Assembly: GCA_964566505.1 (NCBI GenBank)
Contig: CAZMIM010000002.1
Span: 46,529-110,528 of the forward strand
Reading direction: 5' to 3'
DNA from: an uncultured Candidatus Saccharibacteria bacterium
Lineage (GTDB): Bacteria; Patescibacteriota; Minisyncoccia; Phycocordibacterales; PCTT01
DNA: 64,000 nt
In this document: positions 33,731-63,701 of the stretch, piece by piece
Position numbering within the stretch: position 1 is the stretch's first letter
Layout of the letters: the number at the start of each line of letters is the position of its first letter
The notes under the pieces: generated by a model
What the model saw: only the letters and a program-made list of their open reading frames with translations
Database searches by the model: none
Told to the model about the DNA's origin: nothing
Program-made: the position numbers and the translations under genes

Positions 33731-35410
33731 ATGGTTGAGTTCAACGAAGAAGAACATATTAAAAAACTACAACAAATACGCTCTCAAGAGGAAGAGGATT
33801 TGGCGCGGGTGCTTTCAGAGAAATATGGAGTTTCATACGCAGACCTTTCTGGTATAGGAATCGATACAGACGCTCTTAAAATGGTTCCGGAAGAAACTTC
33901 TAGGGAAAATGAAGTTGCTCTTTTTGATATTGTAGGAAAAAAGCTGGCGCTTGCCGCTCGCTCACCCCAAAAGGAATCTACTAAGAAAATGATCTCTGAA
34001 CTACAGTCAAAAGGATACGAAGTGACTGTATATATGGTGTCTCAAAAAAGTCTTGAGAAAGCGTGGGGGCGATACAAAGACATAAACTTTACCACAGAAA
34101 CCTCTGTAGGTCTTTTGGATATATCAAATGAAGAAATTGAGTCGTTTGTAGAAAAACACAAAACACCAGACGAGGTTCGAACGCTTATACAAGAAGTTCT
34201 TTCTCTAAAAAAGGGTCAGAGAGTTACAAGAATAGTTGAGACTATTGTTGCAGGAGGAATCGCACTCTCAGCATCAGATGTTCATATTGAACCACAAGAT
34301 GATGAGGTTGAAATAAGAATGCGTCTTGATGGTATCTTGGTGCCATTTATTTCTTTTGACTATGACACCTACAAACTTCTTCTATCTAGAGTAAAACTTC
34401 TTTCAGGTCTAAAGCTAAATATTACCGAGAATGCACAAGACGGAAGATTTAGTATCCATATAGCAGATACAGAGATCGAAATCCGAACATCAATACTTCC
34501 AGGAAACTATGGTGAGTCTATTGTGCTTCGTATCCTAAACCCAGACACAATATCACTTGAGCTATCTGACTTGGGAATGAGTGATGTTCTGCAAGAGCAA
34601 GTTAAAAAAGATCTTGCTCGACCAAATGGAATGATCTTAAACACAGGACCAACGGGCTCAGGAAAGACAACCACACTTTACGCATTCCTCAAACACATAT
34701 ACAAACCGGGTATTAAAATCATAACCATTGAGGACCCTATCGAATATCACCTTGAAGGGATCACACAAACACAAGTTGATCGCTCAAAAGGCTACACATT
34801 CCTAGAGGGCTTGCGAAGCGCTCTTCGACAAGACCCTGATGTAATCATGGTTGGTGAGATTAGAGATGAGGAAACCGCAAAAACTGCTGTGAATGCCGCC
34901 CTCACAGGACACCTCGTGCTATCAACCCTTCACACAAACAACGCATCGGGCACTTTCCCACGCCTTGTAGACCTTGGGGTAAATCCTCACACACTTGGCT
35001 CTGCTCTTCAGTTAGTAATTGCCCAACGACTTGTAAGAAAAATTCGGCCTGAGTGCAAAACATCTGTTCCAACAAATGAATCTGATCGTGAATTAATACA
35101 AAAAACACTCAATTCACTTTCTGCAAAAGACCAGAGCACACAAACACTCGATCCTCTGACTGTTTCTGATATAAAAAATGAGTGTGCCTCTCGTGATGAT
35201 GGTGGGTACAGTGGTCGTGTCGGTATCTTTGAAGCAATACACATGGATACAGGGCTTGAAGAACTTCTTAAAAACTCTCCTGGCGAACGAGAGGTGGCAC
35301 AATCCCCTTCTGTTTCAAAAAATATAACACTCCAAGAAGACGGAGTTCGAAAGGTTCTCGAAGGAGTTACAACACTCGAGGAACTTCGTCGTGTTGTGGA
35401 CGTATCATAA
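33731..35410 (+). CDS. pilB: type IV pilus assembly / type II secretion ATPase (PilB/GspE family)
   Basis: The 559-aa ORF has a GspE N-domain, Walker A (GPTGSGKTT), Asp box, Walker B and His box (LVLSTLHTNNA). Confidence 0.9.
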   Translation: MVEFNEEEHIKKLQQIRSQEEEDLARVLSEKYGVSYADLSGIGIDTDALKMVPEETSRENEVALFDIVGKKLALAARSPQKESTKKMISELQSKGYEVTVYMVSQKSLEKAWGRYKDINFTTETSVGLLDISNEEIESFVEKHKTPDEVRTLIQEVLSLKKGQRVTRIVETIVAGGIALSASDVHIEPQDDEVEIRMRLDGILVPFISFDYDTYKLLLSRVKLLSGLKLNITENAQDGRFSIHIADTEIEIRTSILPGNYGESIVLRILNPDTISLELSDLGMSDVLQEQVKKDLARPNGMILNTGPTGSGKTTTLYAFLKHIYKPGIKIITIEDPIEYHLEGITQTQVDRSKGYTFLEGLRSALRQDPDVIMVGEIRDEETAKTAVNAALTGHLVLSTLHTNNASGTFPRLVDLGVNPHTLGSALQLVIAQRLVRKIRPECKTSVPTNESDRELIQKTLNSLSAKDQSTQTLDPLTVSDIKNECASRDDGGYSGRVGIFEAIHMDTGLEELLKNSPGEREVAQSPSVSKNITLQEDGVRKVLEGVTTLEELRRVVDVS

Positions 35411-46339: not shown

Positions 46340-46362
46340 AAAACCGCCAGAGGCGGTTTTTT
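46337..46362. terminator. bidirectional rho-independent terminator
   Basis: aaaaaaccgccagaggcggtttttt lies between the convergent jag and the 46361-47575 gene. Confidence 0.6.
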
Positions 46363-47575
46363 AGAGCTCTATTCCCCACGCACTTAAGTCTCTTTTGTTT
46401 ATGAAGTAAAGATAATTTTCATCTTCATTGATAATAAGATTTGTTCCATCTATAAATTGAGAAACATCTTCTTGTGGGGTCATGATTTTGTCTGTAGCAA
46501 AACTGTTTATATCAACTTTCCAAAATACGTCATTAAAGAAAAACTCTCCTTTGTACCAATCATCAGGATAGAGTGCTTGTTGTATAAACTCAGGGACAGC
46601 ACAGTATAGTGATTCTTCTTCGAACCACGTACATTTCTCAGGAAGTGTTGTTATTGGAAGCTCCTGTGAGGTGTCTTCTGAGACATTGTACAGATATGTA
46701 TCGAAGCCACCAAAGATGTTTGTTCGTGCATACAAAACAAAAGAGCCTTCTGGTGATACGAGTGTTGTAAGGCCATCTGCAGACAGGATTTTATTAAATG
46801 AGCGGGATGAAACAGAGAAAAAATATAGTGAACCGTGTGTGTTTGCGGTTGGCGCGCTTGTGAATGCTATTTGGTTTGGGCTAAACCACTGCAGGTTCCA
46901 GTTTTTGTAAGAAGAGTTAAAGATATTTCGAGTGTTTCCGGTTGTTTGTGTGTAGTCTATACCAACAACATCCAAAACACGATCTATTAAGTAGAAATAT
47001 TTATTCCCTGCTGGTGATACAGCCACAGAAGAAATGTTGTTTGGTAAAAATTCTGTTTCAACACCGTTCTCATTAAGCACTCCCCACACACTCTCGATAC
47101 TTTCATAATCTGTATTTATATATTGATACAACACAGAGCCATTTTCACCTACAAGCGCTCTTTGAGAGCTTGGTACGGTTGTGTTCGAAACACGTTCTGT
47201 TTGTTTTGAGCTTGTGTCGTGCTCATATATATGACCGGTTGCCCTATTTACTATATATACACCATTTTCAGAAAGTCCAATTCCAGATGATGGTTGGTTG
47301 TGGGCTTTAAATACATTTTTAGCACTTCCACCGCTTACCCCAACAGAAGAAACAGCGCCTGAGTTTGTGCTCTCAAAAGGATCTTGTGTGGACTGGCCAC
47401 CTCCTCTATCGGTGTTCTCAGTTGGTTCTCCAAAAGGAAACAAGTCTACAGAGTCGTCTTGTCCCATTAAATCAATATTGTTATTTCCACCAATTCCACG
47501 AATTACAAAGAACCCCACAAGAGCAAGGATGAGAATGACAAGTATTAGAATTATAAAAAATCGCTTTTGGAACAT
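46361..47575 (-). CDS. membrane-anchored protein with a predicted extracytoplasmic beta-propeller-like domain (last gene of the T4SS-like operon)
   Basis: The start is taken at the internal MFQKRFFIILILVILIL (a TM anchor). The rest is beta-rich with repeated aromatic and Gly patterns. It is translationally coupled to the upstream gene. Confidence 0.4.
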   Translation of the reverse strand: MFQKRFFIILILVILILALVGFFVIRGIGGNNNIDLMGQDDSVDLFPFGEPTENTDRGGGQSTQDPFESTNSGAVSSVGVSGGSAKNVFKAHNQPSSGIGLSENGVYIVNRATGHIYEHDTSSKQTERVSNTTVPSSQRALVGENGSVLYQYINTDYESIESVWGVLNENGVETEFLPNNISSVAVSPAGNKYFYLIDRVLDVVGIDYTQTTGNTRNIFNSSYKNWNLQWFSPNQIAFTSAPTANTHGSLYFFSVSSRSFNKILSADGLTTLVSPEGSFVLYARTNIFGGFDTYLYNVSEDTSQELPITTLPEKCTWFEEESLYCAVPEFIQQALYPDDWYKGEFFFNDVFWKVDINSFATDKIMTPQEDVSQFIDGTNLIINEDENYLYFINKRDLSAWGIEL

Positions 47576-47576
47576 A

Positions 47577-48824
47577 TTAATCGTTATATACGGAAAAGTG
47601 GTCTGCAGAAATATGTGTCCCAAAGAACTTTATTTCTCCACCGCCGGGTATTGATATCCCCTCAAATGCTTCTAGTATTTTATCTGCTCTATTTCTTTCT
47701 CTTATTTCATACACAGCTCTTAACCCAGAATCGCTTGCAGCTTTAAAGAAAGACATCAGATATGCAACTTGTGTGTTTAAATCTGCAGTTTGAACCAGAA
47801 CAGCAGACTGGCCTGTGAAGTTCGCATCAAAACATGTTCCGTTGTAGTGACACTGACTCGCATGATTCCACTCTGGCGGGAAAGCCTCGGTTATTTGCCA
47901 CTGGATTTGCTGCTGACTCAGTGTTGTGTGTAAATTTTTAAGTTTTGGAATAAGATCTTTGTGGATACCCGTGTTCGAATCAGATTTTATAGGAAAATTA
48001 GCGTCTATTTCTTTAAAAATATCCAAACAATTATCTTCTCCTCCTAAGCACATTGCCCCAGAATCACTTGGCGACACAGCTTCATTTCCATCATCATCAA
48101 AATATATACAATCATCATAAACCTGAAAAAAGTTTTCTAGGTCAAGGTTTATAAAATTATTTGCCATAAGCGCGTATTGAGCGGTTTTACATTCTCCTTT
48201 GCTTTCAAAAGGTCCATATAAATCGTTTGTTAAGTGTACTCGAAAGTAAAAACCAGGGCCTCTGAATTGATTTTTGACCAGCGTTCCAAAGTTTGTTGTA
48301 GATGCTGTAGCCGGGCTGATACCCTTAAGTGAAGTGAGGTCTGGGTTTATTGTGTTTAGCAGCAGCACTGAAAGAAGAGCAATACCCAACCCCCAAAGAG
48401 CACGACGAACATCCGAAAGAGCATTGCTCTTCCCAGTAACAGAGCCTTGTGTCATATACTTTGCACCAGCAATAACAATCATAAGCACAGCAAAAGCAGA
48501 CGCGAGCCCGATTGATAGTTTGAGAATACTGTTTACAAAATCAGCAAATGAACGCTCGTCTCCGATTGGTAAAACAGAAACATATCTATTATTTTCTGCG
48601 TCAAAACGAAGTTCCTGGCCTTCTATATTTATAGGGGCTAGTAAAACATAATCAGATGTTCCATTTGGTGTTGTTCCATATATATATGCTTCACATTCAC
48701 TTTGAGAAAGACCCTGGTATAGCATACATTCTTCTATAACCGTTCTTTGTGCGAAAACAAAAAATGGGGTTAGTAGAAAATAAAATACAATAAAACTAAA
48801 TAAGATTTTTTTCATAATATTCAT
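47577..48824 (-). CDS. secreted/membrane protein with an internal VirB2/TrbC-pilin-like two-helix hairpin and a large Cys-rich C-terminal domain
   Basis: A signal peptide is followed by the FADFVNSILKLSIGLASAFAVLMIVIAGAKYMTQG...ALWGLGIALLSVLLLNTI hairpin, which is reminiscent of T4SS pilin subunits. About 250 aa of hydrophilic, Cys-containing domain follow. Confidence 0.4.
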   Translation of the reverse strand: MNIMKKILFSFIVFYFLLTPFFVFAQRTVIEECMLYQGLSQSECEAYIYGTTPNGTSDYVLLAPINIEGQELRFDAENNRYVSVLPIGDERSFADFVNSILKLSIGLASAFAVLMIVIAGAKYMTQGSVTGKSNALSDVRRALWGLGIALLSVLLLNTINPDLTSLKGISPATASTTNFGTLVKNQFRGPGFYFRVHLTNDLYGPFESKGECKTAQYALMANNFINLDLENFFQVYDDCIYFDDDGNEAVSPSDSGAMCLGGEDNCLDIFKEIDANFPIKSDSNTGIHKDLIPKLKNLHTTLSQQQIQWQITEAFPPEWNHASQCHYNGTCFDANFTGQSAVLVQTADLNTQVAYLMSFFKAASDSGLRAVYEIRERNRADKILEAFEGISIPGGGEIKFFGTHISADHFSVYND

Positions 48825-49516
48825 TATATATCACCAAATATTAGACGTAATTGCTGAGAAGCTCTAGAGAAAAGGTTGTTTTTATCACGAGCGGACAAAC
48901 TAATAGAAACAGAGCCTCCTACCCCACCATCTCGCAGAGTTATTTTTGGAGAATTATTATTTATTAAGTTTCTATTGATTTTCCACTCATAATCAACAAA
49001 ATAAGAATCTCTTTCTGAGGCAAAGAAGAACGGATACGCCTCGAGCGTAATTTCTGTGTCTGTTGTGTTTATCTCATCACCCCATGATTGTCCAAAAAGA
49101 GTTCCAAGAGCGGGGTTGTTTTTGTAAATATATATTTCTGGGTCTGATACTTGGAGAGAAATACTTTTATTTGAAATTACAGCGCCGTTCTCATCCACTA
49201 GCTCAAGCGTTACTGTATTATTTCTAGGAGAGCTTGTGAACACAAAAGTATCTTTACCAACACCAGATTGCTCAGCAATACCGTAGTTGTTAAATCTCCA
49301 TCGATAATTTAGTGATTGAGGATTTACCACATCAACAATCGCAACAACACGAACACTAGCGCCTACAGTAATAAGGGGTCGGCCTGTATAAAATGGCGGT
49401 GTATATGTTTCTGCTTCCCAAAGCAGATCAATATCATCTGCGGTCTGTGCACTTACTACATTAGAAAAAGAAAGAAAAACAAAAAGTATTATTGTTATGT
49501 AGAGTATTTTTTTCAT
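48824..49516 (-). CDS. secreted beta-rich protein (hypothetical)
   Basis: A signal peptide (MKKILYITIILFVFLSFSNVVSAQ) precedes an otherwise hydrophilic protein. Its stop overlaps the next start (TAATG). Confidence 0.4.
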   Translation of the reverse strand: MKKILYITIILFVFLSFSNVVSAQTADDIDLLWEAETYTPPFYTGRPLITVGASVRVVAIVDVVNPQSLNYRWRFNNYGIAEQSGVGKDTFVFTSSPRNNTVTLELVDENGAVISNKSISLQVSDPEIYIYKNNPALGTLFGQSWGDEINTTDTEITLEAYPFFFASERDSYFVDYEWKINRNLINNNSPKITLRDGGVGGSVSISLSARDKNNLFSRASQQLRLIFGDI

Positions 49517-49920
49517 TATGCTGCTCTATTTATAAGTCGCTCTTTTCTAGCAACTCGCTCTTGTTGGACACGAGAAAGTGTTTGGTTTGTTTTTTGTGCA
49601 CTTTGTTTCTCAGTATCCTCTTCTCGAGTTGCTTTGATGTTTAGAAATACTACTGTCGTAAGCTCAGGCAAAGCATTCACGATTGGTATAAGACCAACAA
49701 TCATTCCAACAACAGCTCCTTGCGCCATCTTTTTGTTTTGTGTGTATGGTGCGCCATTTATAATGAACCACACAGGAAATATTATCCAGCTCGCGAGCCA
49801 TGTTGCCCAGTTTGCAACAGTCCCTACCGCAAGGGCGGTAAGCAAAAGCTCTAGCAAGTCAATAAAGAGTGCTGTTCCGAGCATAAGCCATTTTGTGATG
49901 TCGCTGATTCGGTAGTCCAT
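49516..49920 (-). CDS. small polytopic membrane protein (hypothetical)
   Basis: The 134-aa ORF has about three TMs and is translationally coupled on both sides. Confidence 0.4.
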   Translation of the reverse strand: MDYRISDITKWLMLGTALFIDLLELLLTALAVGTVANWATWLASWIIFPVWFIINGAPYTQNKKMAQGAVVGMIVGLIPIVNALPELTTVVFLNIKATREEDTEKQSAQKTNQTLSRVQQERVARKERLINRAA

Positions 49921-51737
49921 TATTGTTGTGGGTTAACTGCGTCTTTTTGGTTCTTTATAGCCAAAAGCTGAGACGGGTCAGATGTAATTATTTGATCTTC
50001 TGTGTAAGAAGCAATAATCTTTATAGCCACATGCTTTAGACCTGCAAAGAATATTCCTTCCCCTACCCCAGATTCAAGGAGCAGATACTTTTCTTCGTCA
50101 GTTAGGTTGAAAGTTTTTTGCACTTCTTCAATGGCAGATGGACTTTGTTTTAGTAGTAGCTGTATAGAAGAGTTTGAGATAATAGGCATGCCGTATGGAG
50201 ATTTCAAAAAGTCGCCAACATCTTGTGTAATAGTTGAAAGCCCGAGGTAGTATTTTCGTCCTCGCTTTGCCATTCCAAACAGGAATGATGCAGTATCTTC
50301 TGAGCGCATCATCCACCACGCCTCATCAATTACCAAAAGCCGTTTCTTGAGCTCTTTTCGTACGGCGTTCCATATATAGTGGGTTACGATATGCATCGCT
50401 ACAGGCTTTAGCTCGTCTTCCATATCTCGTACTGAGAACACTACAAATTTCTTATCAATATCTACATTTGAAGCTTTATTAAGGAAGCCCGCCCATGTTC
50501 CTCGAGTGTATTTTGAAAGACGCTGTACAAGCGAGTCTGTTCCCTCTATTCCCGCAAGCACAAGCTCAAAATCAGATAGAAGCGGTGGCGAAATGTCTTT
50601 TAGGTCAGAGTCAGGGGTAATGTCTTTCAGCGCGTATGTTTCAGTTATAGCTTTGTCGATAATAGAATCCTCTTCTGGTGTAAGTCCACCGAGCATGATT
50701 CGCATAAGTCCCACAAGAGACACGATATGTGAACGAAGTACGTCTGCAGGAGACTCATCTTCTCGTGGTTTTGGAAGATCAAATGGGTTTATGTGGTGCT
50801 CTGATGTGAGTGAGATGTTGAAGTACCTACCGCCAGTAGATTCTGCTAGATATTCGTATTCTCTTTCTGGGTCAATAACAATTACATCAGTTCCAAACAT
50901 AAGTGAACGCAAAATCTCAAGCTTGGTAGCGTATGATTTTCCAGAACCAGCTTGCGCAAATGTTACAGAGTTATAGTTTTCCATTGAAAAACGGTCGAAG
51001 AGTATCAGGCTTGAGTTGTGTCGGTTGATTCCATAAAGTATTCCCCTATTTGATGTCAGGTCAAAAGAAATAAATGGGAACAAGCTAGATAGTGGTGATG
51101 AGTTTAGCTTTGAGTGCACTTTTAATGCATCGCTTGATATAGGAAGAACGCTTTTAAAGCCTTGCTCTTGCTGGAAGAGTGCTGGTTTTAGGTAGATAAG
51201 TTTTGATTCCAATACTGACTTAAGCTCTGACTCAATTTTATCGAGCTCATCTGAAGAGTCTCCATAAATAGTTATATAGAGCCCAACATCAAAGATGCGC
51301 TCTCGTGCTTGTTGTAGGTCATCTCGGAGCTGTTCAAGGTCTTGATAAGCTGTATCAAGCATTGGGTCTCGCACGAGTCCTTTTTCGTATCGTGTATTGA
51401 TTTGGCTTTCTACTTCAGCAACTTTTTTCTGGAACTTTTTTAGTATTTGGGCTGTGTCTATTGGGTTTACCACAATAGATACATCAAATTCCCTATCCAT
51501 GTTTACCACAGGAGAAAACCAACTATCAGAAAGAAACCGAGGGTACGAGATTACGAAAAATGTTCGAGCAACCTTGTCCCCCAGACCAAGCTCTTTTGAA
51601 GAAACTTTTAGTGCAGAAGGTGCAATAACATCTTGAAGCTCCAAAACCCCAGCCTCGTATATTTGCTGCGGAAGCACTGGTGTAATAGAAGGGTTTGCAG
51701 ACTCTTTATTCTTTTTTAGAAAATCAAATATGCCCAT
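49920..51737 (-). CDS. virB4: VirB4/TrbE/CagE-family T4SS ATPase, C-terminal ATPase portion
   Basis: The ORF has Walker A (FAQAGSGKSYATK) and Walker B (LLVIDEAWWMM) in a VirB4-type context. Its start follows the N-domain ORF's stop after a 1-nt gap. Confidence 0.8.
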   Translation of the reverse strand: MGIFDFLKKNKESANPSITPVLPQQIYEAGVLELQDVIAPSALKVSSKELGLGDKVARTFFVISYPRFLSDSWFSPVVNMDREFDVSIVVNPIDTAQILKKFQKKVAEVESQINTRYEKGLVRDPMLDTAYQDLEQLRDDLQQARERIFDVGLYITIYGDSSDELDKIESELKSVLESKLIYLKPALFQQEQGFKSVLPISSDALKVHSKLNSSPLSSLFPFISFDLTSNRGILYGINRHNSSLILFDRFSMENYNSVTFAQAGSGKSYATKLEILRSLMFGTDVIVIDPEREYEYLAESTGGRYFNISLTSEHHINPFDLPKPREDESPADVLRSHIVSLVGLMRIMLGGLTPEEDSIIDKAITETYALKDITPDSDLKDISPPLLSDFELVLAGIEGTDSLVQRLSKYTRGTWAGFLNKASNVDIDKKFVVFSVRDMEDELKPVAMHIVTHYIWNAVRKELKKRLLVIDEAWWMMRSEDTASFLFGMAKRGRKYYLGLSTITQDVGDFLKSPYGMPIISNSSIQLLLKQSPSAIEEVQKTFNLTDEEKYLLLESGVGEGIFFAGLKHVAIKIIASYTEDQIITSDPSQLLAIKNQKDAVNPQQ

Positions 51738-51738
51738 A

Positions 51739-52383
51739 TTATTTTAGTGGAATTGGTTTTTCTAGATCTCCAGGGTTGAATATTTTGTAATAAAGTTCGA
51801 TAAGCTCTTCTGTGCCAAGTCGTGCCACTTGTACTCCAGTACGAGAAAGACCTTGCTCTACTATTCCCACCCTTTGCTCAAGCTGTGAAAGGTATTCTTG
51901 GAATGTCTGATCATCATTTTGTGTGCTCTGACCCCCTTTTTTCTTTCCTGGAAGTAGTGATGTGATACCTCCCTTTTGTTTTATAACAGGAGGAGTATAA
52001 GGAACCACAACAAAGAAAGATTTTGACATAATATCTGACCCTTCAGTGAACTTTTTGATGAAGTTTATATATTCCTGGGTCTGAATCTTCATCAAATCAT
52101 TACTTTGTTTTGTTTGGAGCTCTTCTAGAAGCGCTATATACGGTCTGATATCAAGCTCTCGAGATTGGATGAAGAACTGCACAGAGAAATCTAGCGAGTT
52201 TAGGAAGTTTTGAAACTGGAACAATACAGACTCCTGCTCATCACGAGATTTAAGTGCAAGGTTTATAGACGAAGCCATCAAAACAGCCCTAAGCGACTTG
52301 TCTTTAAGTACCACAACGCCGCCTCGAATCTCCTCGATAGGTACAAAATTTTGTGCTGATTGTGCGTTTTGTGTAGTAGCCAT
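51739..52383 (-). CDS. VirB4/TrbE N-terminal domain protein (split from the ATPase portion)
   Basis: FVPIEEIRGGVVVLKDKSLRAVLMASSINLALKSRDEQES matches the CagE_TrbE_VirB N-domain pattern. Its stop at 51739-51741 is immediately followed by the ATG of the ATPase ORF. Confidence 0.55.
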   Translation of the reverse strand: MATTQNAQSAQNFVPIEEIRGGVVVLKDKSLRAVLMASSINLALKSRDEQESVLFQFQNFLNSLDFSVQFFIQSRELDIRPYIALLEELQTKQSNDLMKIQTQEYINFIKKFTEGSDIMSKSFFVVVPYTPPVIKQKGGITSLLPGKKKGGQSTQNDDQTFQEYLSQLEQRVGIVEQGLSRTGVQVARLGTEELIELYYKIFNPGDLEKPIPLK

Positions 52384-52385
52384 AG

Positions 52386-52829
52386 TTATCTAATGGTATC
52401 AGGTTTTTTATTTTGTGCTTCTTGTGAATACATGCTGTCTTTTACCCCCAAACTCCATGCAATATCTTTTAGCTTGCTATCAGATAGACGAGGAACAGTG
52501 ACCTGTTCTATTGCTGTTTTTGCAGAAGCGCTTTTTTGTGTCGGTTTTTTCTGATTTTTCTTCCAAATATAGAGCTTCCCCCCAAACGAATACTTTATAG
52601 CTGACTCCATAATCTCAATAAATGGTTTTCCATTGATTTTGTAGAAAGCGAGCGCAAGCGCCAAGCCAACAATGGGAACAATAAGAAGTATTGCAATGAT
52701 TGTTGGCAGGACTTGCCAGATAACAAACGCAATACCTCCCCCACCAGCAACATACACAAATTGTTTGAATGTGAGTGGGCCAAAGATTTTGTCTTCAACC
52801 TCGATAAATTGTGGTACTTGGAATTGCAT
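52386..52829 (-). CDS. VirB3-like / PrgI-family small membrane protein
   Basis: MQFQVPQFIEVEDKIFGPLTFKQFVY followed by two TM helices is the typical VirB3/PrgI pattern. It sits directly upstream of VirB4, as in canonical systems. Confidence 0.5.
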   Translation of the reverse strand: MQFQVPQFIEVEDKIFGPLTFKQFVYVAGGGGIAFVIWQVLPTIIAILLIVPIVGLALALAFYKINGKPFIEIMESAIKYSFGGKLYIWKKNQKKPTQKSASAKTAIEQVTVPRLSDSKLKDIAWSLGVKDSMYSQEAQNKKPDTIR

Positions 52830-52834
52830 AATAA

Positions 52835-53413
52835 TTATTCTACTGATTCTCGATATGGATCCGATGATTTTTGTGGGACATTTTGTTTCGGCTGAGGTGC
52901 TTTCTTTGTCTGGTTCTTAATCACAACAGGCTCATTTAGTTTTGAGCCAACAACAGCGTTTGTTTTCTGTGGTTTCTCTATTTCTTTTAGAAGCTCATCT
53001 GACACAGATGGTCTTGGCGCTTGGGTTTTCAGCTCTTGTGCGCTCGGGTGTTCTACTGGTTTTATTTTTTCTGCCGGCATAGGCTCGCTAACAGCTTGTC
53101 TTTTTGGTGCTATTAGGTGCTGTCTTATTGGTTGGAATATTTGTGAATCCACATCAGAGATTATTTGATTAATTTTTTCTTCAGGAAGTTGTAAGGCACT
53201 TTTTAGGTTTTTAGGAAAATCATTTGGTTGTGTAAACCCAAGGATAACCAAACTAATTTGGTCTGCCAAAAGCCCTGATTGCTCAATGTTTAGGCCGTGT
53301 TTTTCTTGAATTCCAGAGAGCGTTTCAATGGCGATATCTGTTGTGAGCGAGTCTTTAAGCTCTTGTGGAAGCTCTCCAAATCGCTCTATTCTTTTGTCTT
53401 TAGGAACACTCAT
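52835..53413 (-). CDS. hypothetical protein with a P/Q/K-rich low-complexity C-terminus
   Basis: The 192-aa ORF has no TMs and no recognisable family. Confidence 0.35.
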   Translation of the reverse strand: MSVPKDKRIERFGELPQELKDSLTTDIAIETLSGIQEKHGLNIEQSGLLADQISLVILGFTQPNDFPKNLKSALQLPEEKINQIISDVDSQIFQPIRQHLIAPKRQAVSEPMPAEKIKPVEHPSAQELKTQAPRPSVSDELLKEIEKPQKTNAVVGSKLNEPVVIKNQTKKAPQPKQNVPQKSSDPYRESVE

Positions 53414-53416
53414 TTT

Positions 53417-56014
53417 TTAGAAGTTATATTGACCGTACCCTTTTGTCAGCCAGTCGTTAACATTTATTTGTGCCTCAGTAGCAACTTTCCTATCAACAAG
53501 GTCTTTGAATAGTTGACGAATCTCAGCTTTATCTTTCGCATCAAGCTTCTTTGCCAAAGCTATAAATCTAGTTGAATCGAGCTGTTTTTGGAATTCTTTG
53601 TCAGTAAGAATGTCTCTCTCTAGCTTTGCAAGGTCCTCAGGGTCTCCGATATCCCTTATTGCGTCTCTTATTACATCACCAAAACCTGATTTAAGGGCTT
53701 TTCTTAAGGGCTTAACTCTAGACTCTTTTATTTGTTTTTTTAGCGCCCCATCAACATCTTTCCTATCAAGAAGTGTTTTGTATTGTCCCCCACTCATGTT
53801 TGCCACCATTACATCAACTAGTTTTGGATCACCAAGAATTTCATTGCCAATATTTTCAACATCCTTACTTGTAAGTGTGTTTAAGGCGTCTTTAACATCT
53901 TTTTTTGCACCACTTTTTAGGGCAGTAGATAGTGTATTTAGATAGGTTTCTCTTACTTTTGATTTATCTTTTTCAGATTTTTTATCCAAACTTAGGAATT
54001 TGTTGAAATGCGACGAATTCATAAAAGGCGTTATTTTTTCTAGTAGTTCGTCACCAATTTTATCGAAGTTTCCGCTGTGTCTTCCATCTAGAAGATTTCT
54101 AATATCAGTTTGTGGTGTATTTGTTTCTCCTTTTCCATCTAGGGCATCCTTTAGATCACTAAAGAAAGCTGTTCTAAGAGATTTCTTTTCATTTGAATTA
54201 AGGTCTCCTTTTTCAGCTGCCTCAAGTTGTCCACCATTCATATACGGGGCAAGTTTTTCTAGTTGCTCTAGTGACATGTTCTCAAAGTCTTTGTTTGAGA
54301 AAGTTTTAAGAACATTTTTAAGTTCTTCGATTGCACCCTTAACATTATTTGAGATGTCTTCGAGAGGTTTATTAACTCTCTCCATGTATGCTTTTTGAAT
54401 CTTTTTCTTCTCACCCTCTGATTTGTCGCTCTTATCAATCGCTTCCATTTGCTTGGCATTAAGAAGTGGTGCAATTTTTGATAGAGCTCCAGTACTTAGA
54501 TCGGAAACTTCTTTATTTGTCATACTGCCAATAATACTCTTTATGTCTTTATGAATTTGATCCTTACGCGCGTCATATTCTGGCTGAGTAAATAAACCTC
54601 CAGAAAACTGTTCGTTGAGCTTGTCGAGTTTTTTTGCAAGAGCCGTAAGCTCAGAAGCCCTTGCGCTTTTTGTTCGTGATGCGTCTTCTGCTCTTTTTCG
54701 CTTATCTTGCTCTTTTAGGTTCATTGAGCCACCAAATTTTGAGTCTTCAACAGACTGAATTCCTCGTCTTACAGCTCTGCTTCCGGCATCTGTTACGGCT
54801 GCAATTCCAGTATATTTTGTGAGTGGTTTGTATATTTTTCCAAGAGGGTGAGTCGATGGTTTTGCGGTTCTAAATCGCTCGTCATATCTGTCATAAACTT
54901 TTCCAGCACGTTTTGCTAGCCTGCCCGCCACATTTCTTCCAACCCAACTTCGTGTGCTGTTTCCCCAACCTATTACTGTTTGGGCTCCAGTGGCGCCAAC
55001 CTGCTTTGAGATAACAAGTGCACCAATCATGAAGCCGCTAATTATTGTAAATACCAATATTAAGTCTAATCCGCCAGCTGGGTTTTTTAGAGTTTCGGCA
55101 AAAGTTTGTGAGTTTCCCAGAAAACGCAGTTGGAATGTCGGGTGTGTAACAATTTTTGCAGTTAGCCATATCATTGCAAAGTATATAGGCGCAAAGAACG
55201 CTTGTTCTAATAAGACTTTCTTCCACTTGTTCCAATATGATTTTGTGTTCGGAAGTATCATGGCCACGAACGCAAGCGGTGAGAGAATCATCAGAAATAC
55301 AAGCACCACAAATCTCGTAATCAAAAGGGCGGCGCCCGCAAAGAAAATAAACCCTGTTATAAGAAGGAATATTGAACCAAACACTCCAATGATAATTATC
55401 TCTGTGTGCCCTAGAGCTGGGTCGTCTGTAACACTGCTTCCATCTGGTTTATATATACTTTGGATTTTCATTGCATTTGCGAAAACACCAGCAATTCCTC
55501 CTTCTCTAACCCCACTTGTAGGGTCTATTGTTTCTCCGGTTATGCCATCTTGTACCTCGACTGCATTATAGAACTGTAGAGAAACTATATTTGCAACATC
55601 TATAACTACTTTTGTGAAAAATAAGCTGAAGTTTATTAAAAGACCTACTATCACTACATTTAGAATTATTTTCTTTGCATTGAAGCTTGGAATATTTAAT
55701 ACGGTCGCAATAGATGCATAGATTAAAAAGAAAATAAATAACACATTTGCAAAGTCGCGGAATGTCTCCCACCCTATTGTCACAGCCCCAAGGCTATCTA
55801 CGGTCGGTGCCATATTTACTACAAGACGCTCAATTGCAATGTTAAACAAAAGGCCTCCAATACCCATAATCCAACCGCTTATGGTTAGGAAAACGTTTGC
55901 AACAGTGGCCATAACTCCCTCACCAAGAGCAAAGGCAAACTCAGAACCCACAGGAGAGAATGCTCCTGCGAGTACAAAGAATATGAAGATTATGAATATA
56001 TATTTTCTCTTCAC
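53417..56014 (-). CDS. VirB6/TrbL-like polytopic membrane protein with a about 450-aa C-terminal repetitive coiled-coil-like domain
   Basis: The N-terminal 400 aa have about eight TMs, typical of VirB6 homologues of Gram-positive-type T4SS. The C-terminal half has at least three ~60-aa repeats (..L.KIAPLLNAKQMEAIDKSDKSEGEKKK.. / ..LEKLAPYMNGGQLEAAEKGDLNSNEKKS.. / ..LEKITPFMNSSHFNKFLSLDKKSEKDKS..). Confidence 0.5.
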   Translation of the reverse strand: MKRKYIFIIFIFFVLAGAFSPVGSEFAFALGEGVMATVANVFLTISGWIMGIGGLLFNIAIERLVVNMAPTVDSLGAVTIGWETFRDFANVLFIFFLIYASIATVLNIPSFNAKKIILNVVIVGLLINFSLFFTKVVIDVANIVSLQFYNAVEVQDGITGETIDPTSGVREGGIAGVFANAMKIQSIYKPDGSSVTDDPALGHTEIIIIGVFGSIFLLITGFIFFAGAALLITRFVVLVFLMILSPLAFVAMILPNTKSYWNKWKKVLLEQAFFAPIYFAMIWLTAKIVTHPTFQLRFLGNSQTFAETLKNPAGGLDLILVFTIISGFMIGALVISKQVGATGAQTVIGWGNSTRSWVGRNVAGRLAKRAGKVYDRYDERFRTAKPSTHPLGKIYKPLTKYTGIAAVTDAGSRAVRRGIQSVEDSKFGGSMNLKEQDKRKRAEDASRTKSARASELTALAKKLDKLNEQFSGGLFTQPEYDARKDQIHKDIKSIIGSMTNKEVSDLSTGALSKIAPLLNAKQMEAIDKSDKSEGEKKKIQKAYMERVNKPLEDISNNVKGAIEELKNVLKTFSNKDFENMSLEQLEKLAPYMNGGQLEAAEKGDLNSNEKKSLRTAFFSDLKDALDGKGETNTPQTDIRNLLDGRHSGNFDKIGDELLEKITPFMNSSHFNKFLSLDKKSEKDKSKVRETYLNTLSTALKSGAKKDVKDALNTLTSKDVENIGNEILGDPKLVDVMVANMSGGQYKTLLDRKDVDGALKKQIKESRVKPLRKALKSGFGDVIRDAIRDIGDPEDLAKLERDILTDKEFQKQLDSTRFIALAKKLDAKDKAEIRQLFKDLVDRKVATEAQINVNDWLTKGYGQYNF

Positions 56015-56028
56015 GAATTAATTAATGA

Positions 56029-58476
56029 TTATTGGCCACCTGTTCCCTCATCACCCCCGCTTTTGTCTGGGTCGTCCGATCCACCACGAGAACCAAAGAA
56101 GTCTCTGCTTCCTGTTACTGGCCCACCGCCAGAGCCTGGCTGTGATGGACATGTGATAGTGAGCCGGTAATCTCCATCATGATATAGAACCACTCCGTAT
56201 GCACTGCTTTGTACCGCGCTTCTAATATCTGCCCCTCCATATGAGCTTCTGTCACTTCTATATACTATTTGATATCTTTCTCCACCAAGCCCCTCAAATG
56301 TTGCTGGTTGCCCAGAGCTTTTGTTTATAAACTCACCTGTACATGTGCCCGTGCTTTGTATTTCTGTGTATGACCAGTCTACATAAGATGCATATCGTGG
56401 TGATGCTCCTTCTCCAAGGTCTGTGTACTCAACATCACTTATTTGAATTGTTGGTCGAAGAACAGAACAACTTCCTGTGATACTTGAACGGAAGTGTGAG
56501 ATTTGTTGTACGAGTTGTAGCATTCTCACCGCCTCACCAGCAAGATCGCCAACATTTGGCACGCTATTTATTAGTGCGCGATGTCGTGTATCAATATCAT
56601 TTATCTCTTCTTCGTCTGCACCAGAAATTTCATCAAGTTCATCAAGTAGTGCTCCAGCGTCTTCAATACTCTCTTCTACTACAGATATTAGATTTAAGTA
56701 TGTGTAGTAGTCTGCTCCGTCTCTAACAAGACTTCGTGTGTTGTATGAGTCTCGGAGCTCTTCATAGCTTGCTCTTGCAATTGTACTTTGTTGAGTTGTA
56801 CCACACGCATTTAGGTCAAGATATATATCGCTGAGATTTATTTCATCATTTTGGAAAGCTCCAATATCTAGTGTGTATGGCTCACAAACATCACCCCTGT
56901 CATCATCTGGATCGCCAGTGTACTCACCCGCATCATATGTCTCACACGCTTGAACTGGCGAAAGCGCGCTTCCAAATTCATTAAACAGATCCTGAACATC
57001 ATCCATTGTGAAATAATAGGCAGATATTGGTATACCAATATTTCCTTTTGTTCTATTGAATTGCGCTACAGCAAGTAGATCCCTCAAGTTAGTAATTGTT
57101 TCTACCAAAGAAGCTCTGATTTGTGCAATTCGAAGTGAGTTTGCTGAGCTTGGTGGAGTGCTTCCACTCCCTGCATATCGTAGACCTCTTTCTGGGTCTT
57201 GTATTTTGCCAAAGAGTGAATCTGCAAAGCCAGAAACAATCTCATTCATTTCATCAGCATATATAGCTCTTTCATAATCACCTATTGCAACCTTTTCTAC
57301 AATTGCTCCTACAAGGTTTCCAGGGGTAATTACTTCTGGGTATCGTCCGTCAGCACATCTTCCTATGGAGCTTGGCTGAGAACCATCTTCACATCGAAGT
57401 TCTGGCAAGTATCCGTTGCCGTATCGGAGCTGTTCAAGCTCATAGTCGCGTGACTCATCGATAAACTGAGAAAGTTTTTCTGTTTGATCTATATATGCTG
57501 TATATGGGTTGCTTCCAGGATCTTCAAGTAGTGCAAACCATGCATTCCAACCACCCCTTTGGAAGTTCTCACTTAGGAAAACATCTGTATTTCCTCGTCC
57601 TAGTACATCCTCAAGCGCACATGTTTGTTGTCCGTACCCCCAAATACCTCGAGGCGCTATATATCCAGAGTATCCGCTTGGTCGGTAGTACGAACGATAG
57701 TAGTCGTTATATAGCGATGCTGAAATTCCATCACGATATGTTGTACAAATAGTGTTAAATGTCTCGCTGTCACCCATGAAGTCAGCAAATGCTTGGTCGG
57801 CTCTAAGTCTTAGCTGTGCTCCAAGGTTTGTAACGAAACGAGGGTTTCCAGCACGCGCGATTCCTTGTACCCATTTTCGTGTTTCGTCAGACATTGTTGC
57901 AAGTATTCTGTCTGCTGCTTCTCGTGCAAGCGCGTCATAACACTGCTCTTTTTTGTATGCGGCCTCCATTGCCTGTCTTAGTCCTGGCTCATACACTTCC
58001 TGTGGTCCTTTTTTCTTTCCTCCAAAAAATCCAGACACCAACCCCCCTACTATTCCACCTACTCCAGGAATATCTTCTATAAACTCTGCAGCCTGACCAA
58101 TTTTTTCTACCAAAGATGTGTCCTCAAGCAGGTCAACAACTCCGTTTACCGCAATTTCAAGACCTTGATCTACTCCTTCTGACACAGCGTCAGTGATAAC
58201 GCTTCCACTACATGCGTCTAGTATATAAATTCCTTCTCTAATTCTATTTACCCTATCTCCACCACCGAAAGGCACTCCAGGATTGAGTATTATGTTTGTG
58301 AAAATGTCAGAGATATTGTCATTTACATCAATATCAGACCCTCTATTGTTTGAATCACAAAGACCTGGGTCTAGGTCACAAATATCGCTTTGCGCCAATG
58401 CGTTGTTTGGCGTTATAAAAAATAAAGCAAAAACTGAAAGAAGAAATATAGCAAAATAGAGTGGTGTTTTTTTCAT
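56029..58476 (-). CDS. large secreted protein (815 aa, Cys-containing, Gly-rich C-terminus); putative surface or adhesin component of the T4SS-like locus
   Basis: A signal peptide (MKKTPLYFAIFLLSVFALFFITPNNALAQ) is followed by no TMs. The C-terminus reads GSGGGPVTGSRDFFGSRGGSDDPDKSGGDEGTGGQ. Confidence 0.45.
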   Translation of the reverse strand: MKKTPLYFAIFLLSVFALFFITPNNALAQSDICDLDPGLCDSNNRGSDIDVNDNISDIFTNIILNPGVPFGGGDRVNRIREGIYILDACSGSVITDAVSEGVDQGLEIAVNGVVDLLEDTSLVEKIGQAAEFIEDIPGVGGIVGGLVSGFFGGKKKGPQEVYEPGLRQAMEAAYKKEQCYDALAREAADRILATMSDETRKWVQGIARAGNPRFVTNLGAQLRLRADQAFADFMGDSETFNTICTTYRDGISASLYNDYYRSYYRPSGYSGYIAPRGIWGYGQQTCALEDVLGRGNTDVFLSENFQRGGWNAWFALLEDPGSNPYTAYIDQTEKLSQFIDESRDYELEQLRYGNGYLPELRCEDGSQPSSIGRCADGRYPEVITPGNLVGAIVEKVAIGDYERAIYADEMNEIVSGFADSLFGKIQDPERGLRYAGSGSTPPSSANSLRIAQIRASLVETITNLRDLLAVAQFNRTKGNIGIPISAYYFTMDDVQDLFNEFGSALSPVQACETYDAGEYTGDPDDDRGDVCEPYTLDIGAFQNDEINLSDIYLDLNACGTTQQSTIARASYEELRDSYNTRSLVRDGADYYTYLNLISVVEESIEDAGALLDELDEISGADEEEINDIDTRHRALINSVPNVGDLAGEAVRMLQLVQQISHFRSSITGSCSVLRPTIQISDVEYTDLGEGASPRYASYVDWSYTEIQSTGTCTGEFINKSSGQPATFEGLGGERYQIVYRSDRSSYGGADIRSAVQSSAYGVVLYHDGDYRLTITCPSQPGSGGGPVTGSRDFFGSRGGSDDPDKSGGDEGTGGQ

Positions 58477-58479
58477 AAA

Positions 58480-59430
58480 TTAGTTTGATAATTCTGCCAG
58501 GATTTCTCCGAGCTGTTGATAAATGTCAAAGTTTGAGTTACTTAGTGTTTTAAACCGCTCAATACCAGCAAGGCCTACAAGAGGGTCATCAAAAATTTTC
58601 TGCATCTCTTCTATTGCAAGAGCCAAATTGGCGTAGTTGTTTATGAGCGTTACGTGCTCTTGACTGAATTCTGATGGCGCAGGCAAAAGTAATAGTCTTG
58701 ATTTAACTGCATTATAAAAAGTTATATTGTCTTCCAGCCGTTCAAGCATTAGTGGGTTCTGGTCTGTTATAACTTCCGCAAGAAGTTGTGTTTCGTTTGC
58801 TACTGCATTTAATTTCTCGGCCTCAATAGTAATAATATCGAGAATTGATCTAATATATTCGAACTGCTTTTCCGATGTATTGGTTGTGGTCTTAATATCT
58901 TGTGATGTATATTCTGGAACTCCTGTGCTTAGTGACTCTGCAACAGATGAAGAAAGTGAGTCTAGGTCATATGAGCTATCTTGGAGAGCTTCTCCAGTAA
59001 TATTTGCATCTGATTGCACCAAAATACTTGGGAGTGCTTGCTCAAAAACACTTTGTGTTTGATTTATTGAAAGTGAGTCTTGGATTTGGAGTTGTGTATG
59101 GATACGCCCGAGGTGGCTTTCTGTAATCGCGTCATTTGGACCAGGTATCGCAGGGTGTGTACCTTGTGTTATCTCTTCCCCATCATCAACACCGTCTCCA
59201 TCTGTGTCAGGATTTCGAATATCGCTGTCCCATAGTATTTCTTCCCAATCAAAAAGCCCGTCACCATCGGTGTCGTCTTGGTTTTTTTCATAGAAATCGC
59301 TTTGAAGGACAGTAACTCCCTCTTCTTGCGTTTGATCGTTCGTTCGTGGTGTTGTATCGAGGACAATAACTGCAATAAGGACAATAGCGATACCTATAAA
59401 AATAGAGACTGTGATTTTCTTATTCAACAT
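58480..59430 (-). CDS. membrane-anchored protein with thrombospondin-type-3-like Ca-binding repeats; first gene of the operon
   Basis: An N-terminal TM is followed by DTDGDGLFDWEE and DTDGDGVDDGEE (Dx[DN]xDG Ca-binding motifs). Confidence 0.45.
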   Translation of the reverse strand: MLNKKITVSIFIGIAIVLIAVIVLDTTPRTNDQTQEEGVTVLQSDFYEKNQDDTDGDGLFDWEEILWDSDIRNPDTDGDGVDDGEEITQGTHPAIPGPNDAITESHLGRIHTQLQIQDSLSINQTQSVFEQALPSILVQSDANITGEALQDSSYDLDSLSSSVAESLSTGVPEYTSQDIKTTTNTSEKQFEYIRSILDIITIEAEKLNAVANETQLLAEVITDQNPLMLERLEDNITFYNAVKSRLLLLPAPSEFSQEHVTLINNYANLALAIEEMQKIFDDPLVGLAGIERFKTLSNSNFDIYQQLGEILAELSN

Positions 59431-62585: not shown

Positions 62586-63701
62586 TTGGCTAATCATTGG
62601 CTTATACCATTTAGAAAAACGAATACCAACTTACAGTCAGATTCTGATGACGGAGGTAATAAACAGGGTTGGTTCTCAATAAACACACATTCAAGGCTCG
62701 TAATCGAGCTTGTTCTTCTATTTTTTGTGTTGGTATTCCCTGCCGCAGCTCATGCAGGTGTTTTTTCATTTCTAGGAGCAATCTTTGCTGATACTCAAAC
62801 GGTAATAAACCAAACACTCGACACAACTCAAAACTCACAAAATATGGCACTTCTTCGTGCTGCTGTGAACCCAAACCCAGATCCAGCCAAAGGAGGCGGT
62901 GATATTACTATTGTTGGTGATATGGCGCTTCTTTCAGAGGCAGGACCATCAGGAACAATCGCTGATATTGATGAATATAAGCAGTCTTCAGGACAGATTT
63001 CTCTTTATGTAGTACGTGAGGGCGATACTCTTTCACAAATTGCGACCATGTTTGGTGTTTCTGTAAACACAATTATGTGGGCAAATGGCACAGAGCGCGC
63101 TTCTCTTATTGCACCAGGAGAGACACTTATTATTCTGCCTGTTTCAGGTATACGACACACAGTTAAATCAGGAGAGACACTTGCAGGTATTGTAAAGAAA
63201 TACAAAGGACACTTTGAAGAGGTTCTAGAGTATAACGGCCTAAAAGCAAACGCGAAGCTTGCTGTTGGTGATGTGGTGGTGATTCCAGATGGAGAAATTG
63301 CTGCACCAAAGATAACAACATCATCTGTTGCTCGAGGCACAAGTGGTCCTTCATATGATGGATACTATATGCGACCAGTTTCTGGTGGTACAAAGACTCA
63401 AGGAATTCACGGATATAACGCTATCGATATTGGTGCACCATTTGGAACTCCTATTCTTGCATCTGCATCAGGTACTGTGATTATTTCACGAGACTGGGGA
63501 TGGAACGGAGGTTATGGTAATTATGTTGTTATAAAGCACAACAACGGTACGCAAACTCTTTACGCCCACAACTCACGAAACATTGTTTCTTCAGGGCAAA
63601 GCGTGGTTCAAGGACAAGTAATTGGATACGTTGGTTCAACTGGTAAGTCTACTGGTAACCACCTTCACTTTGAGATTCGAGGTGCGAAAAACCCATTTTA
63701 A
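62586..63701 (+). CDS. LysM-domain M23-family peptidoglycan metalloendopeptidase
   Basis: The ORF has two LysM repeats (YVVREGDTLSQIATMFGVSVNTIMWAN; HTVKSGETLAGIVKKY) and an M23 core (HGYNAIDIGAP...GNYVVIKHNNGTQTLYAHNS...STGNHLHFEIR). Confidence 0.85.
   Translation: MANHWLIPFRKTNTNLQSDSDDGGNKQGWFSINTHSRLVIELVLLFFVLVFPAAAHAGVFSFLGAIFADTQTVINQTLDTTQNSQNMALLRAAVNPNPDPAKGGGDITIVGDMALLSEAGPSGTIADIDEYKQSSGQISLYVVREGDTLSQIATMFGVSVNTIMWANGTERASLIAPGETLIILPVSGIRHTVKSGETLAGIVKKYKGHFEEVLEYNGLKANAKLAVGDVVVIPDGEIAAPKITTSSVARGTSGPSYDGYYMRPVSGGTKTQGIHGYNAIDIGAPFGTPILASASGTVIISRDWGWNGGYGNYVVIKHNNGTQTLYAHNSRNIVSSGQSVVQGQVIGYVGSTGKSTGNHLHFEIRGAKNPF

Follow-up and report, generated by a model that had tools for sequence, protein, structure and literature searches.

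What purpose does a set of type IV secretion system (T4SS) genes serve when the genes for conjugation are missing beside it, and does such a set belong to a mobile element or to the chromosome? This question is raised by a gene cluster in a 64,000-nucleotide stretch of DNA (the window; positions 46,529 to 110,528 of contig CAZMIM010000002.1, assembly GCA_964566505.1) from an uncultured bacterium deposited as Candidatus Saccharibacteria. The listing of open reading frames (ORFs) of the window showed 11 tightly coupled, co-directional ORFs on the minus strand at 46361-59430, named here g1 to g11 from the ksgA side; all cluster features given below lie on this strand. A preliminary description of the same DNA had announced twelve genes, although its own list also names 11, and had proposed a fixed, non-conjugative VirB3/VirB4/VirB6-type machine of an episymbiont. 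The count has to be corrected, and the proposal agrees with the synteny of the locus, with the genes absent from the window and with published work (PMC12102498, PMC10633639). We conclude that the cluster is, with high probability, a vertically inherited chromosomal T4SS of Paceibacteria (Patescibacteria, or candidate phyla radiation, CPR), related to the MPF-FATA systems of monoderms, which is no longer conjugative and serves host contact by the mechanism set out below.

A conserved chromosomal locus without adjacent conjugation genes

Relatives of the VirB4 protein of the cluster were searched in a collection with one genome per species, where 559 were confirmed, and the best 80 loci were fetched for comparison. 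The VirB4 proteins of these 80 were 74-81% identical to that of the window (median 77%), and the titles of their genomes name Kaiser-, Campbell-, Taylor-, Zambryski-, Nomura- and Adlerbacteria, Paceibacterota and similar groups. In the loci long enough to show flanks, the order was kept as uvrD-ksgA, then g1-g2-g3-g4-VirB3-TrsD-VirB4-(g8)-g9-g10-g11, then jag-yidC-rnpA-dnaA-dnaN. Conservation across related genomes, which the preliminary description had left to be checked, was thus found, the locus being syntenic in the 80 fetched Paceibacteria genomes. In the window, jag, yidC, rnpA, dnaA and dnaN adjoin the g11 end of the cluster, and beyond g1 come ksgA, uvrD and a LysM-M23 peptidase gene, in agreement with the location beside the chromosomal origin, amid housekeeping genes, that had been described. 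Because the same locus lies between the same housekeeping genes in 80 genomes, we regard the cluster as a fixed chromosomal machine and not as a mobile element. Many of the 80 metagenome-assembled genomes (third party annotation, TPA, assemblies) are titled 'uncultured Candidatus Saccharibacteria', labels which look like generic mislabels.

Among the matches listed, the best plasmid VirB4 proteins came from Firmicutes and Actinobacteria and were at most 36% identical; judged by similarity, the window VirB4 would belong to the Patescibacteria clade. The envelope proteins of the cluster exhibited median identities of 24-34%; by these comparisons, the motor is slow-evolving and the surface fast-evolving.

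We found no family match to VirD4, VirB11, a relaxase or an integrase among the cluster proteins, the flanking proteins and 20 further ORFs of the window (158-805 aa), the search covering the 64-kb window, about half of its 127.6-kb contig. The only T2SSE ATPase of the window is the PilB-type protein at 33731-35410. The absence of these four kinds of gene in or beside the cluster, as reported in the preliminary description, is therefore borne out within the 64-kb window.

A conjugative element, integrated or as a decayed remnant, could still have its VirD4, relaxase and integrase outside the window. Its VirB4, PrgI and TrsD families are typical of Firmicute conjugative elements, its gene order is colinear with that of a Clostridium plasmid T4SS, and half of the contig lies beyond the window. 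We consider this highly improbable, since the same site between housekeeping genes is occupied in the 80 fetched loci, from one genome per species, with VirB4 proteins as similar as stated above. The cluster has a GC fraction of 0.38-0.44, the same as the rest of the window, with no compositional break; the nearest tRNA gene lies about 17 kb away, no integrase is matched in the window, and a search for att-like repeats flanking the cluster revealed only short, imperfect ones. Relaxases are moreover rare in Patescibacteria, with 109 in 3,035 genomes (PMC12102498).

That survey of 3,035 Patescibacteria genomes (Quinonero-Coronel et al. 2025, PMC12102498) showed that Patescibacteria VirB4 proteins form a monophyletic clade nested in MPF-FATA, with TrsD as the commonest partner, that PrgI-type VirB3, VirB6 and VirB2-like pilins are encoded near virB4, that coupling-protein genes are seldom adjacent, and that the T4SS of Paceibacteria and Microgenomatia adjoins dnaA, dnaN, rnpA, ksgA and rpmH. 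By transposon sequencing (Tn-seq), Wang et al. 2023 found the orthologous cluster SEML1_0006-0019 and the pilins to be essential for epibiotic growth of Southlakia, and recognised neither a coupling protein nor a relaxase (PMC10633639). The system of the window is therefore already known as the published Patescibacteria T4SS, for which both the lack of a relaxase and the dnaA/ksgA/rnpA setting are on record, and the preliminary description re-derived published knowledge, both finding and interpretation, from raw sequence. Like the published Paceibacteria arrangement (PMC12102498, PMC10633639), the window has VirB4 with a separate TrsD and a PrgI-type VirB3, and near virB4 it encodes a candidate VirB6 and a pilin of VirB2-like type; neither a relaxase nor a coupling protein is adjacent, and the dnaA/dnaN/rnpA/ksgA location and the monoderm (MPF-FATA) affinity are shared as well. 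It has one pilin-like gene, compared with the arrays of 2-11 genes common in Saccharimonadia and Microgenomatia, and otherwise exhibits no essential difference, except that its pilin carries a Hedgehog-like LAS peptidase domain, unlike the systems described in the main texts of the published accounts. The window is thus a clean and complete Paceibacteria example in which each gene is described here at domain level, and not a new kind of system. What is new, relative to those main texts, is the domain-level account of the accessory proteins in Paceibacteria, above all the fusion of a pilin with a Hedgehog-like peptidase and the family of g2.

Motor and channel core

The presence of VirB3 and VirB4 was supported by profile searches, which the preliminary description had suggested for both and which both pass. 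The VirB3/PrgI-family membrane protein (52386..52829, 147 aa) matched Pfam PrgI with an E-value of 6.6e-11 and 43 bits, above the gathering score of 27, and had a median identity of 52% across loci. The VirB4 ATPase (49920..51737, 605 aa) scored 370 bits with the NCBIfam CD1110-family VirB4 model, whose cutoff is 325 bits (E-value 1.7e-110), and both the Walker A (AQAGSGKS) and Walker B (LLVIDE) motifs are intact in its translation. Between them, a TrsD-like protein of 214 aa (51739..52383) corresponds to the VirB4 N-terminal domain as a gene of its own. It matched positions 99-233 of the NCBIfam model VirB4_plasma, a mycoplasma VirB4 model (4e-12), and TrsD (6e-7), and aligned by BLASTP with residues 22-197 of a one-piece Clostridium VirB4 of 797 aa (E 7e-8); of the 80 fetched loci, 77 gave a match to it, and the median identity was 60%. 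Since the N-domain protein matches both the TrsD/VirB4 models and a full-length Clostridium VirB4, the split of VirB4 into an N-domain and an ATPase ORF, seen already in the preliminary description, is real and represents the known TrsD arrangement.

The best candidate for the channel is g3 (53417..56014, 865 aa), a possible extended VirB6. Its residues 1-340 form a polytopic domain with at least five hydrophobic segments in a hydropathy scan, and the C-terminal half is hydrophilic, with repeats of about 70 aa at residues ~480-630 (DNA 54125-54574) that gave a local score of 106 versus 24+/-5 in shuffled sequences. Pfam TrbL was matched by 8 of 59 syntenic orthologs of g3 (best 1.3e-4), whereas the window g3 itself gave no Pfam match. 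It is encoded upstream of PrgI with g4 between them; in the Clostridium botulinum plasmid pCDC3875, VirB6 lies directly upstream of PrgI. We lean towards g3 being VirB6, as position and topology favour. Of the VirB6/TrbL-like protein described before, the polytopic domain and the repeats are therefore retained, the repeat unit being about 70 and not about 60 aa, and the VirB6 assignment stands tentatively.

Two plasmid systems are the nearest conjugative counterparts of this core. The CTn2/CD1110-type Firmicute T4SS of pCDC3875 shares with the window the CD1110 VirB4 family and PrgI, and its order, VirD4-x-VirB6-PrgI-x-VirB4-small protein-SLT/NlpC-P60 hydrolase, is colinear with the window from VirB6 on. 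The plasmid differs in having VirD4 (CD1115), a MOBP relaxase typing, a one-piece VirB4 of 797 aa, a VirB6 of 260 aa and a hydrolase with SLT and NlpC/P60 domains; the VirB4 proteins of the two are about 32% identical, and the window is without the DNA-transfer parts of the plasmid. In the trs region of pGO1/pSK41 (the TrsC-TrsD-TrsE subclass of MPF-FATA), TrsD lies between VirB3 (TrsC) and VirB4 (TrsE), as in the window (NCBIfam TrsD 6e-7; PMC12102498). Unlike the window, trs is plasmid-borne and conjugative, with the coupling protein TrsK and a relaxase, and descriptions of it include no pilin-like protein.

A pilin-like protein with a predicted peptidase domain

The protein g10 (47577..48824, 415 aa) has a signal peptide, a VirB2-like T4SS pilin hairpin at residues 92-160 (48345-48551), a linker and an extracellular C-terminal zinc-peptidase domain of Hedgehog/DD-peptidase type (LAS, M15-like) at residues 270-415 (47580-48017). 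We aligned g10 with 36 syntenic orthologs (n=37). PF18895 (T4SS_pilin) was matched by 34 of the 37 sequences (best 2.4e-10) and TrbC/VirB2 by 3 of them; the window g10 alone matched PF18895 at 3e-4. Structure models were made for the whole of g10 and for the core of g2. The AlphaFold2 (AF2) model of g10, built from 31 sequences, showed the two helices of the hairpin (H93-125 and H129-158), with a block-mean predicted local distance difference test (pLDDT) of 81-90 at residues 101-150 and of 66-72 at the ends. These results are in line with the embedded VirB2/TrbC-pilin-like hairpin noted in the preliminary description. The linker of about 100 residues is of low confidence in the model and probably disordered, and the C-terminal domain (residues 271-415) was modelled with a block-mean pLDDT of 86-98.

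No Pfam model recognises the C-terminal domain. Ten aligned sequences with a window-type C-terminus share the motif W-x-ITEAfPP...H...CHyNGTC-x-D ... HFSVY, and the profile of this region matched in the PDB only Hedgehog N-terminal domains (best 5e-3), the match covering TE...H...H-x6-D. The best Foldseek match of the model was Desert hedgehog (prob 1.00). On the basis of the Hedgehog profile matches, the confident AF2 model and the Foldseek match, the domain is predicted to have the LAS-type (Hh/DD-peptidase, M15-like) zinc-peptidase fold; the fold, the metal-binding H-x6-D and the distal His of the family are all present. This zinc-peptidase family is documented (PMC6027127, PMC8052667). Unlike the LAS peptidases (Hedgehog N-domain, VanX, MepA; MEROPS M15A-like), the predicted peptidase domain of g10 is joined by a long linker to a pilin hairpin of T4SS type. 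The domain may replace the canonical VirB1.

The regions after the hairpin differ among g10 orthologs. Homologues found in databases with the pilin part have VanY, M15_4, M23, NlpC/P60, SLT or YkuD domains, and subtilase or CHAP domains were found in two syntenic orthologs. Among 73 pilin-like ORFs of the fetched loci, 43 exhibited a C-terminal extension of at least 100 aa and 18 almost none. In a pair of pilin-like orthologs (L078 13293-15032 / L002 13885-15303), one has a subtilase (S8) domain inserted ahead of the hairpin, and the other has apparently two pilin hairpins followed by a lytic-transglycosylase-like ES-x-F region; from their sequences, both appear to be further modular fusions of a pilin and an enzyme. 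The main text of the 2025 survey makes no mention of pilin-enzyme fusions (PMC12102498). For Paceibacterales enrichment cultures, T4SS pilin-domain proteins are listed with the genes of unknown function whose expression was highest (PMC10936435).

These fusions raise the question of whether a pilus is made at all. The protein g10 could be a membrane-anchored wall hydrolase, a functional VirB1 comparable to PrgK, TraG and TcpG, with the hairpin as its anchor, and the machine a short channel of Gram-positive type. It lies downstream of VirB4, where the Clostridium plasmid has its SLT/NlpC-P60 hydrolase; the operon has no other VirB1 candidate; and the frequent long extensions, the variety of wall hydrolases in the homologues and the poor fit that bulky C-terminal domains would have in a VirB2-type helical filament all point the same way. 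We rate this alternative as possible but somewhat unlikely, for the hairpin matches pilin families in the alignment described above, a quarter or so of the pilin-like ORFs (18/73) have almost no extension, and the pilin arrays of Saccharibacteria are essential (PMC10633639), and the linker is long enough that the domain could dangle from a filament.

A 111-aa protein encoded just upstream of VirB6 in pCDC3875 (L081 8791-9126) starts with a signal peptide and forms a hairpin of two helices that contains a GG...GK motif and resembles the CPR pilin hairpin; neither Pfam nor a hidden Markov model (HMM) of CPR-derived pilins matched it, and the CPR pilin and LAS HMMs gave no matches on the Clostridium plasmid. 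The NCBIfam model 'pilin-like conjugal transfer protein', from Mycoplasma integrative conjugative elements, weakly matched g10 (0.0029). Pilin-like hairpins among monoderm T4SSs may not be unique to Patescibacteria.

Proposed role in host contact

In the mechanism that we propose for this chromosomal T4SS, VirB4 and TrsD would be docked by VirB3 on a VirB6-like channel, as established T4SS biology suggests. The VirB4 motor would power the extraction of the pilin-like subunit and its assembly into a wall-spanning conduit or a short pilus. The tethered LAS peptidase would cut peptide links of peptidoglycan in the wall of the cell itself (as a VirB1 substitute), in that of the host, or in both, and g1, g2, g9 and g11 would make up or coat the part outside the cell and attach to the host. 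We consider contact with a host, during which proteins or other molecules are transferred, to be the likeliest role, and not DNA conjugation, because the cluster has no coupling protein or relaxase beside it and the orthologous system is essential for the epibiotic growth of a saccharibacterium. Effector delivery and uptake of nucleotides or DNA have both been speculated upon for these systems, whose function is stated to be unknown (PMC12857230, PMC11665869).

Uptake is the second of these roles to be weighed. If the machine resembled ComB of Helicobacter or Ced of Sulfolobales, it would bring in DNA or nucleotides from the host for a cell unable to make them. Such a role has been proposed for the T4SS of Patescibacteria, which lack nucleotide synthesis (PMC11665869), and, as in ComB, there is no adjacent coupling protein or relaxase. 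VirB4 also gave a weak, partial NCBIfam match to CedB (4e-7), but this covers only the shared P-loop region and reaches 29 bits against a cutoff of 700. No DNA-binding profile was matched by any operon protein, and in Southlakia deletion of comEC ends transformation and leaves the cells viable, the T4SS being essential independently of competence (PMC12857230). We therefore hold uptake to be an unlikely function.

Several observations weigh against a host-contact machine as drawn here. In many Patescibacteria VirD4-like genes lie far from virB4 (PMC12102498), and since the window is only part of its contig, a distant coupling protein is possible. The homology of g3 to VirB6 is marginal: the profile of its orthologs matched R388 TrwI at E 0.0024 over the conserved third and fourth transmembrane segments (TM3-TM4), no better than spurious matches to unrelated G protein-coupled receptors, and hhalign against the Firmicute CD1112-type VirB6 was negative (prob 0.3). 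VirB8 and a canonical VirB1 escaped detection, no family match to VirB8, SLT or CHAP being obtained for any of the 11 proteins by sequence profiles, the one kind of test applied; a VirB8 recognisable by structure may be present among those other than g10 and g2. The pilin domain of the window g10 falls below the Pfam gathering score (21.2 vs 26.6 bits). Finally, the pilus, the peptidase activity and the transport of proteins or other molecules are predictions from the genes.

Much of bacterial diversity belongs to the Patescibacteria, whose cells live on the surface of other microbes. The T4SS is near-universal in the phylum and essential in the one species tested, and is therefore a foremost candidate for the means by which resources are drawn from hosts. 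Two leads come from the window: a predicted pilin-tethered peptidoglycan peptidase, which may explain the missing canonical VirB1, and a large family of surface proteins with a conserved helical domain and variable binding domains.

Accessory surface proteins

The apparatus had been called minimal, which is too weak a word, since conservation extends beyond the core to seven accessory envelope proteins; the description as an apparatus stands and its extent was understated. The main texts of the two published studies (PMC12102498, PMC10633639) do not characterise g1, g2, g4, g8, g9 and g11.

The second of the lead families is represented by g2 (56029..58476, 815 aa), whose signal peptide bears out the secreted protein of this length in the preliminary description. 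It has a conserved all-helical domain of no known family at residues ~175-440 (57157-57954), followed by a variable C-terminal region. An exhaustive search of representatives gave 1,586 cluster representatives sharing residues ~175-440 at E<=1e-3, with C-termini that vary between discoidin, Ig-like, PKD, beta-helix, GH5, TSP3 and LTD domains. No solved structure is related to the helical domain. A VirB5-type pilus-tip protein was considered for g2 and rejected, as there is no structural likeness to the VirB5/TraC helical fold.

A further possibility, rather unlikely as we see it, joins this family with the pilin fusions. The pilin-like subunits would be carriers of swappable wall-cutting heads, Hedgehog-like LAS in the window and VanY, M15_4, M23, NlpC/P60, SLT, YkuD or subtilase in homologues, and together with the g2 family and its swappable adhesin or glycan-binding tails they would act as a host-specific drill and grapple that opens a feeding junction. 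If so, the T4SS would push the heads through the host wall, and the diversity of heads would track host range.

The first gene of the cluster, g1 (58480..59430, 316 aa), encodes a protein with an N-terminal transmembrane (TM) anchor, TSP3-type Ca-binding repeats at residues 52-105 (59116-59277; Pfam TSP3_bac 2.7e-5) and a helical C-terminal domain. The profile of its orthologs matched the Ca-binding repeats of Bap (7c7r, 3e-7), and tblastn matches were found in 27 of the 80 fetched loci. At the other end, g11 (46361..47575, 404 aa) has an N-terminal TM anchor and a TolB-like beta-propeller; the 12 best PDB matches of its ortholog profile were all TolB (best 1.9e-5), with tblastn matches in 66 of the 80 loci. 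The TM protein with TSP3-like repeats and the membrane-anchored beta-propeller-like protein recognised earlier thus correspond to g1 and g11, as do the secreted beta-rich protein to g9, Ig-like by profile, and the small TM protein to g8, by hydropathy.

The secreted Ig-like protein g9 (48824..49516, 230 aa) matched by profile the Ig-like domains of T4 Hoc (2e-4). Its syntenic orthologs exceed it by about 110 residues (~340 aa, mostly 320-365) and have an extra N-terminal Ig-like domain; the window g9 has lost this domain or never had it. The small membrane protein g8 (49516..49920, 134 aa) has 2-3 hydrophobic segments and is poorly conserved. That g8 and g9 are one split gene was rejected: the extra part of g9 in the relatives is a secreted N-terminal domain and not g8 sequence, and relatives with the longer g9 still keep a separate small membrane protein.

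The remaining protein, g4 (52835..53413, 192 aa), has no hydrophobic segment in a hydropathy scan and matched no known family and no PDB relative. It is conserved in 42 loci, with a conserved N-terminal region of about 100 aa and a Pro-rich middle of low conservation; at the C-terminus, the motif DPYRE is nearly invariant and may serve as a short site of docking to another part of the T4SS.

Operon boundaries and neighbouring genes

The intergenic distances from g1 to g11 are 3, 14, 3, 5, 2, 1, -1, -1, -1 and 1 nt, and three of the junctions are TAATG overlaps, which accords with the tight coupling through TAATG or 1-nt junctions reported for the cluster. For g11, the ATG at 47575 is a likelier start than the upstream TTG at 47623 (404 aa vs 420 aa). 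The spacer between ksgA and the cluster is 126 nt long and contains, in this order, a terminator-like hairpin on the ksgA side (59487-59469), an exact extended -10 element TGtTATAAT (59464-59456), the ribosome-binding site GAGGGGAG and the ATG at 59430, the first two found by pattern match and direct reading. From its pattern only, TGtTATAAT would be the promoter of the operon. The TATAAT promoter of the preliminary description is thereby retained as an element and moved in position by about 10 nt from ~59468.

Just past uvrD, a divergent gene at 62586-63701 encodes the LysM and M23 peptidase mentioned above, and a gene of this kind occupies the same position in 9 related loci. M23 and LysM occur as extra domains in some VirB1 homologues (PMC12102498); whether or not the product of the gene acts together with the T4SS, both cases are conceivable. 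Among housekeeping genes elsewhere in the window lie the gene of the PilB-type T2SSE ATPase at 33731-35410, which has an MshEN domain, and that of a PilM-like protein (15049-15930); both are scattered parts of a type IV pilus and not VirB11. A protein of 659 aa encoded at 9809-11788 has dockerin type I repeats and several Ig-like domains (Kre9/KNH, Big_13, RibLong), and may be an adhesin on the surface of the episymbiont.

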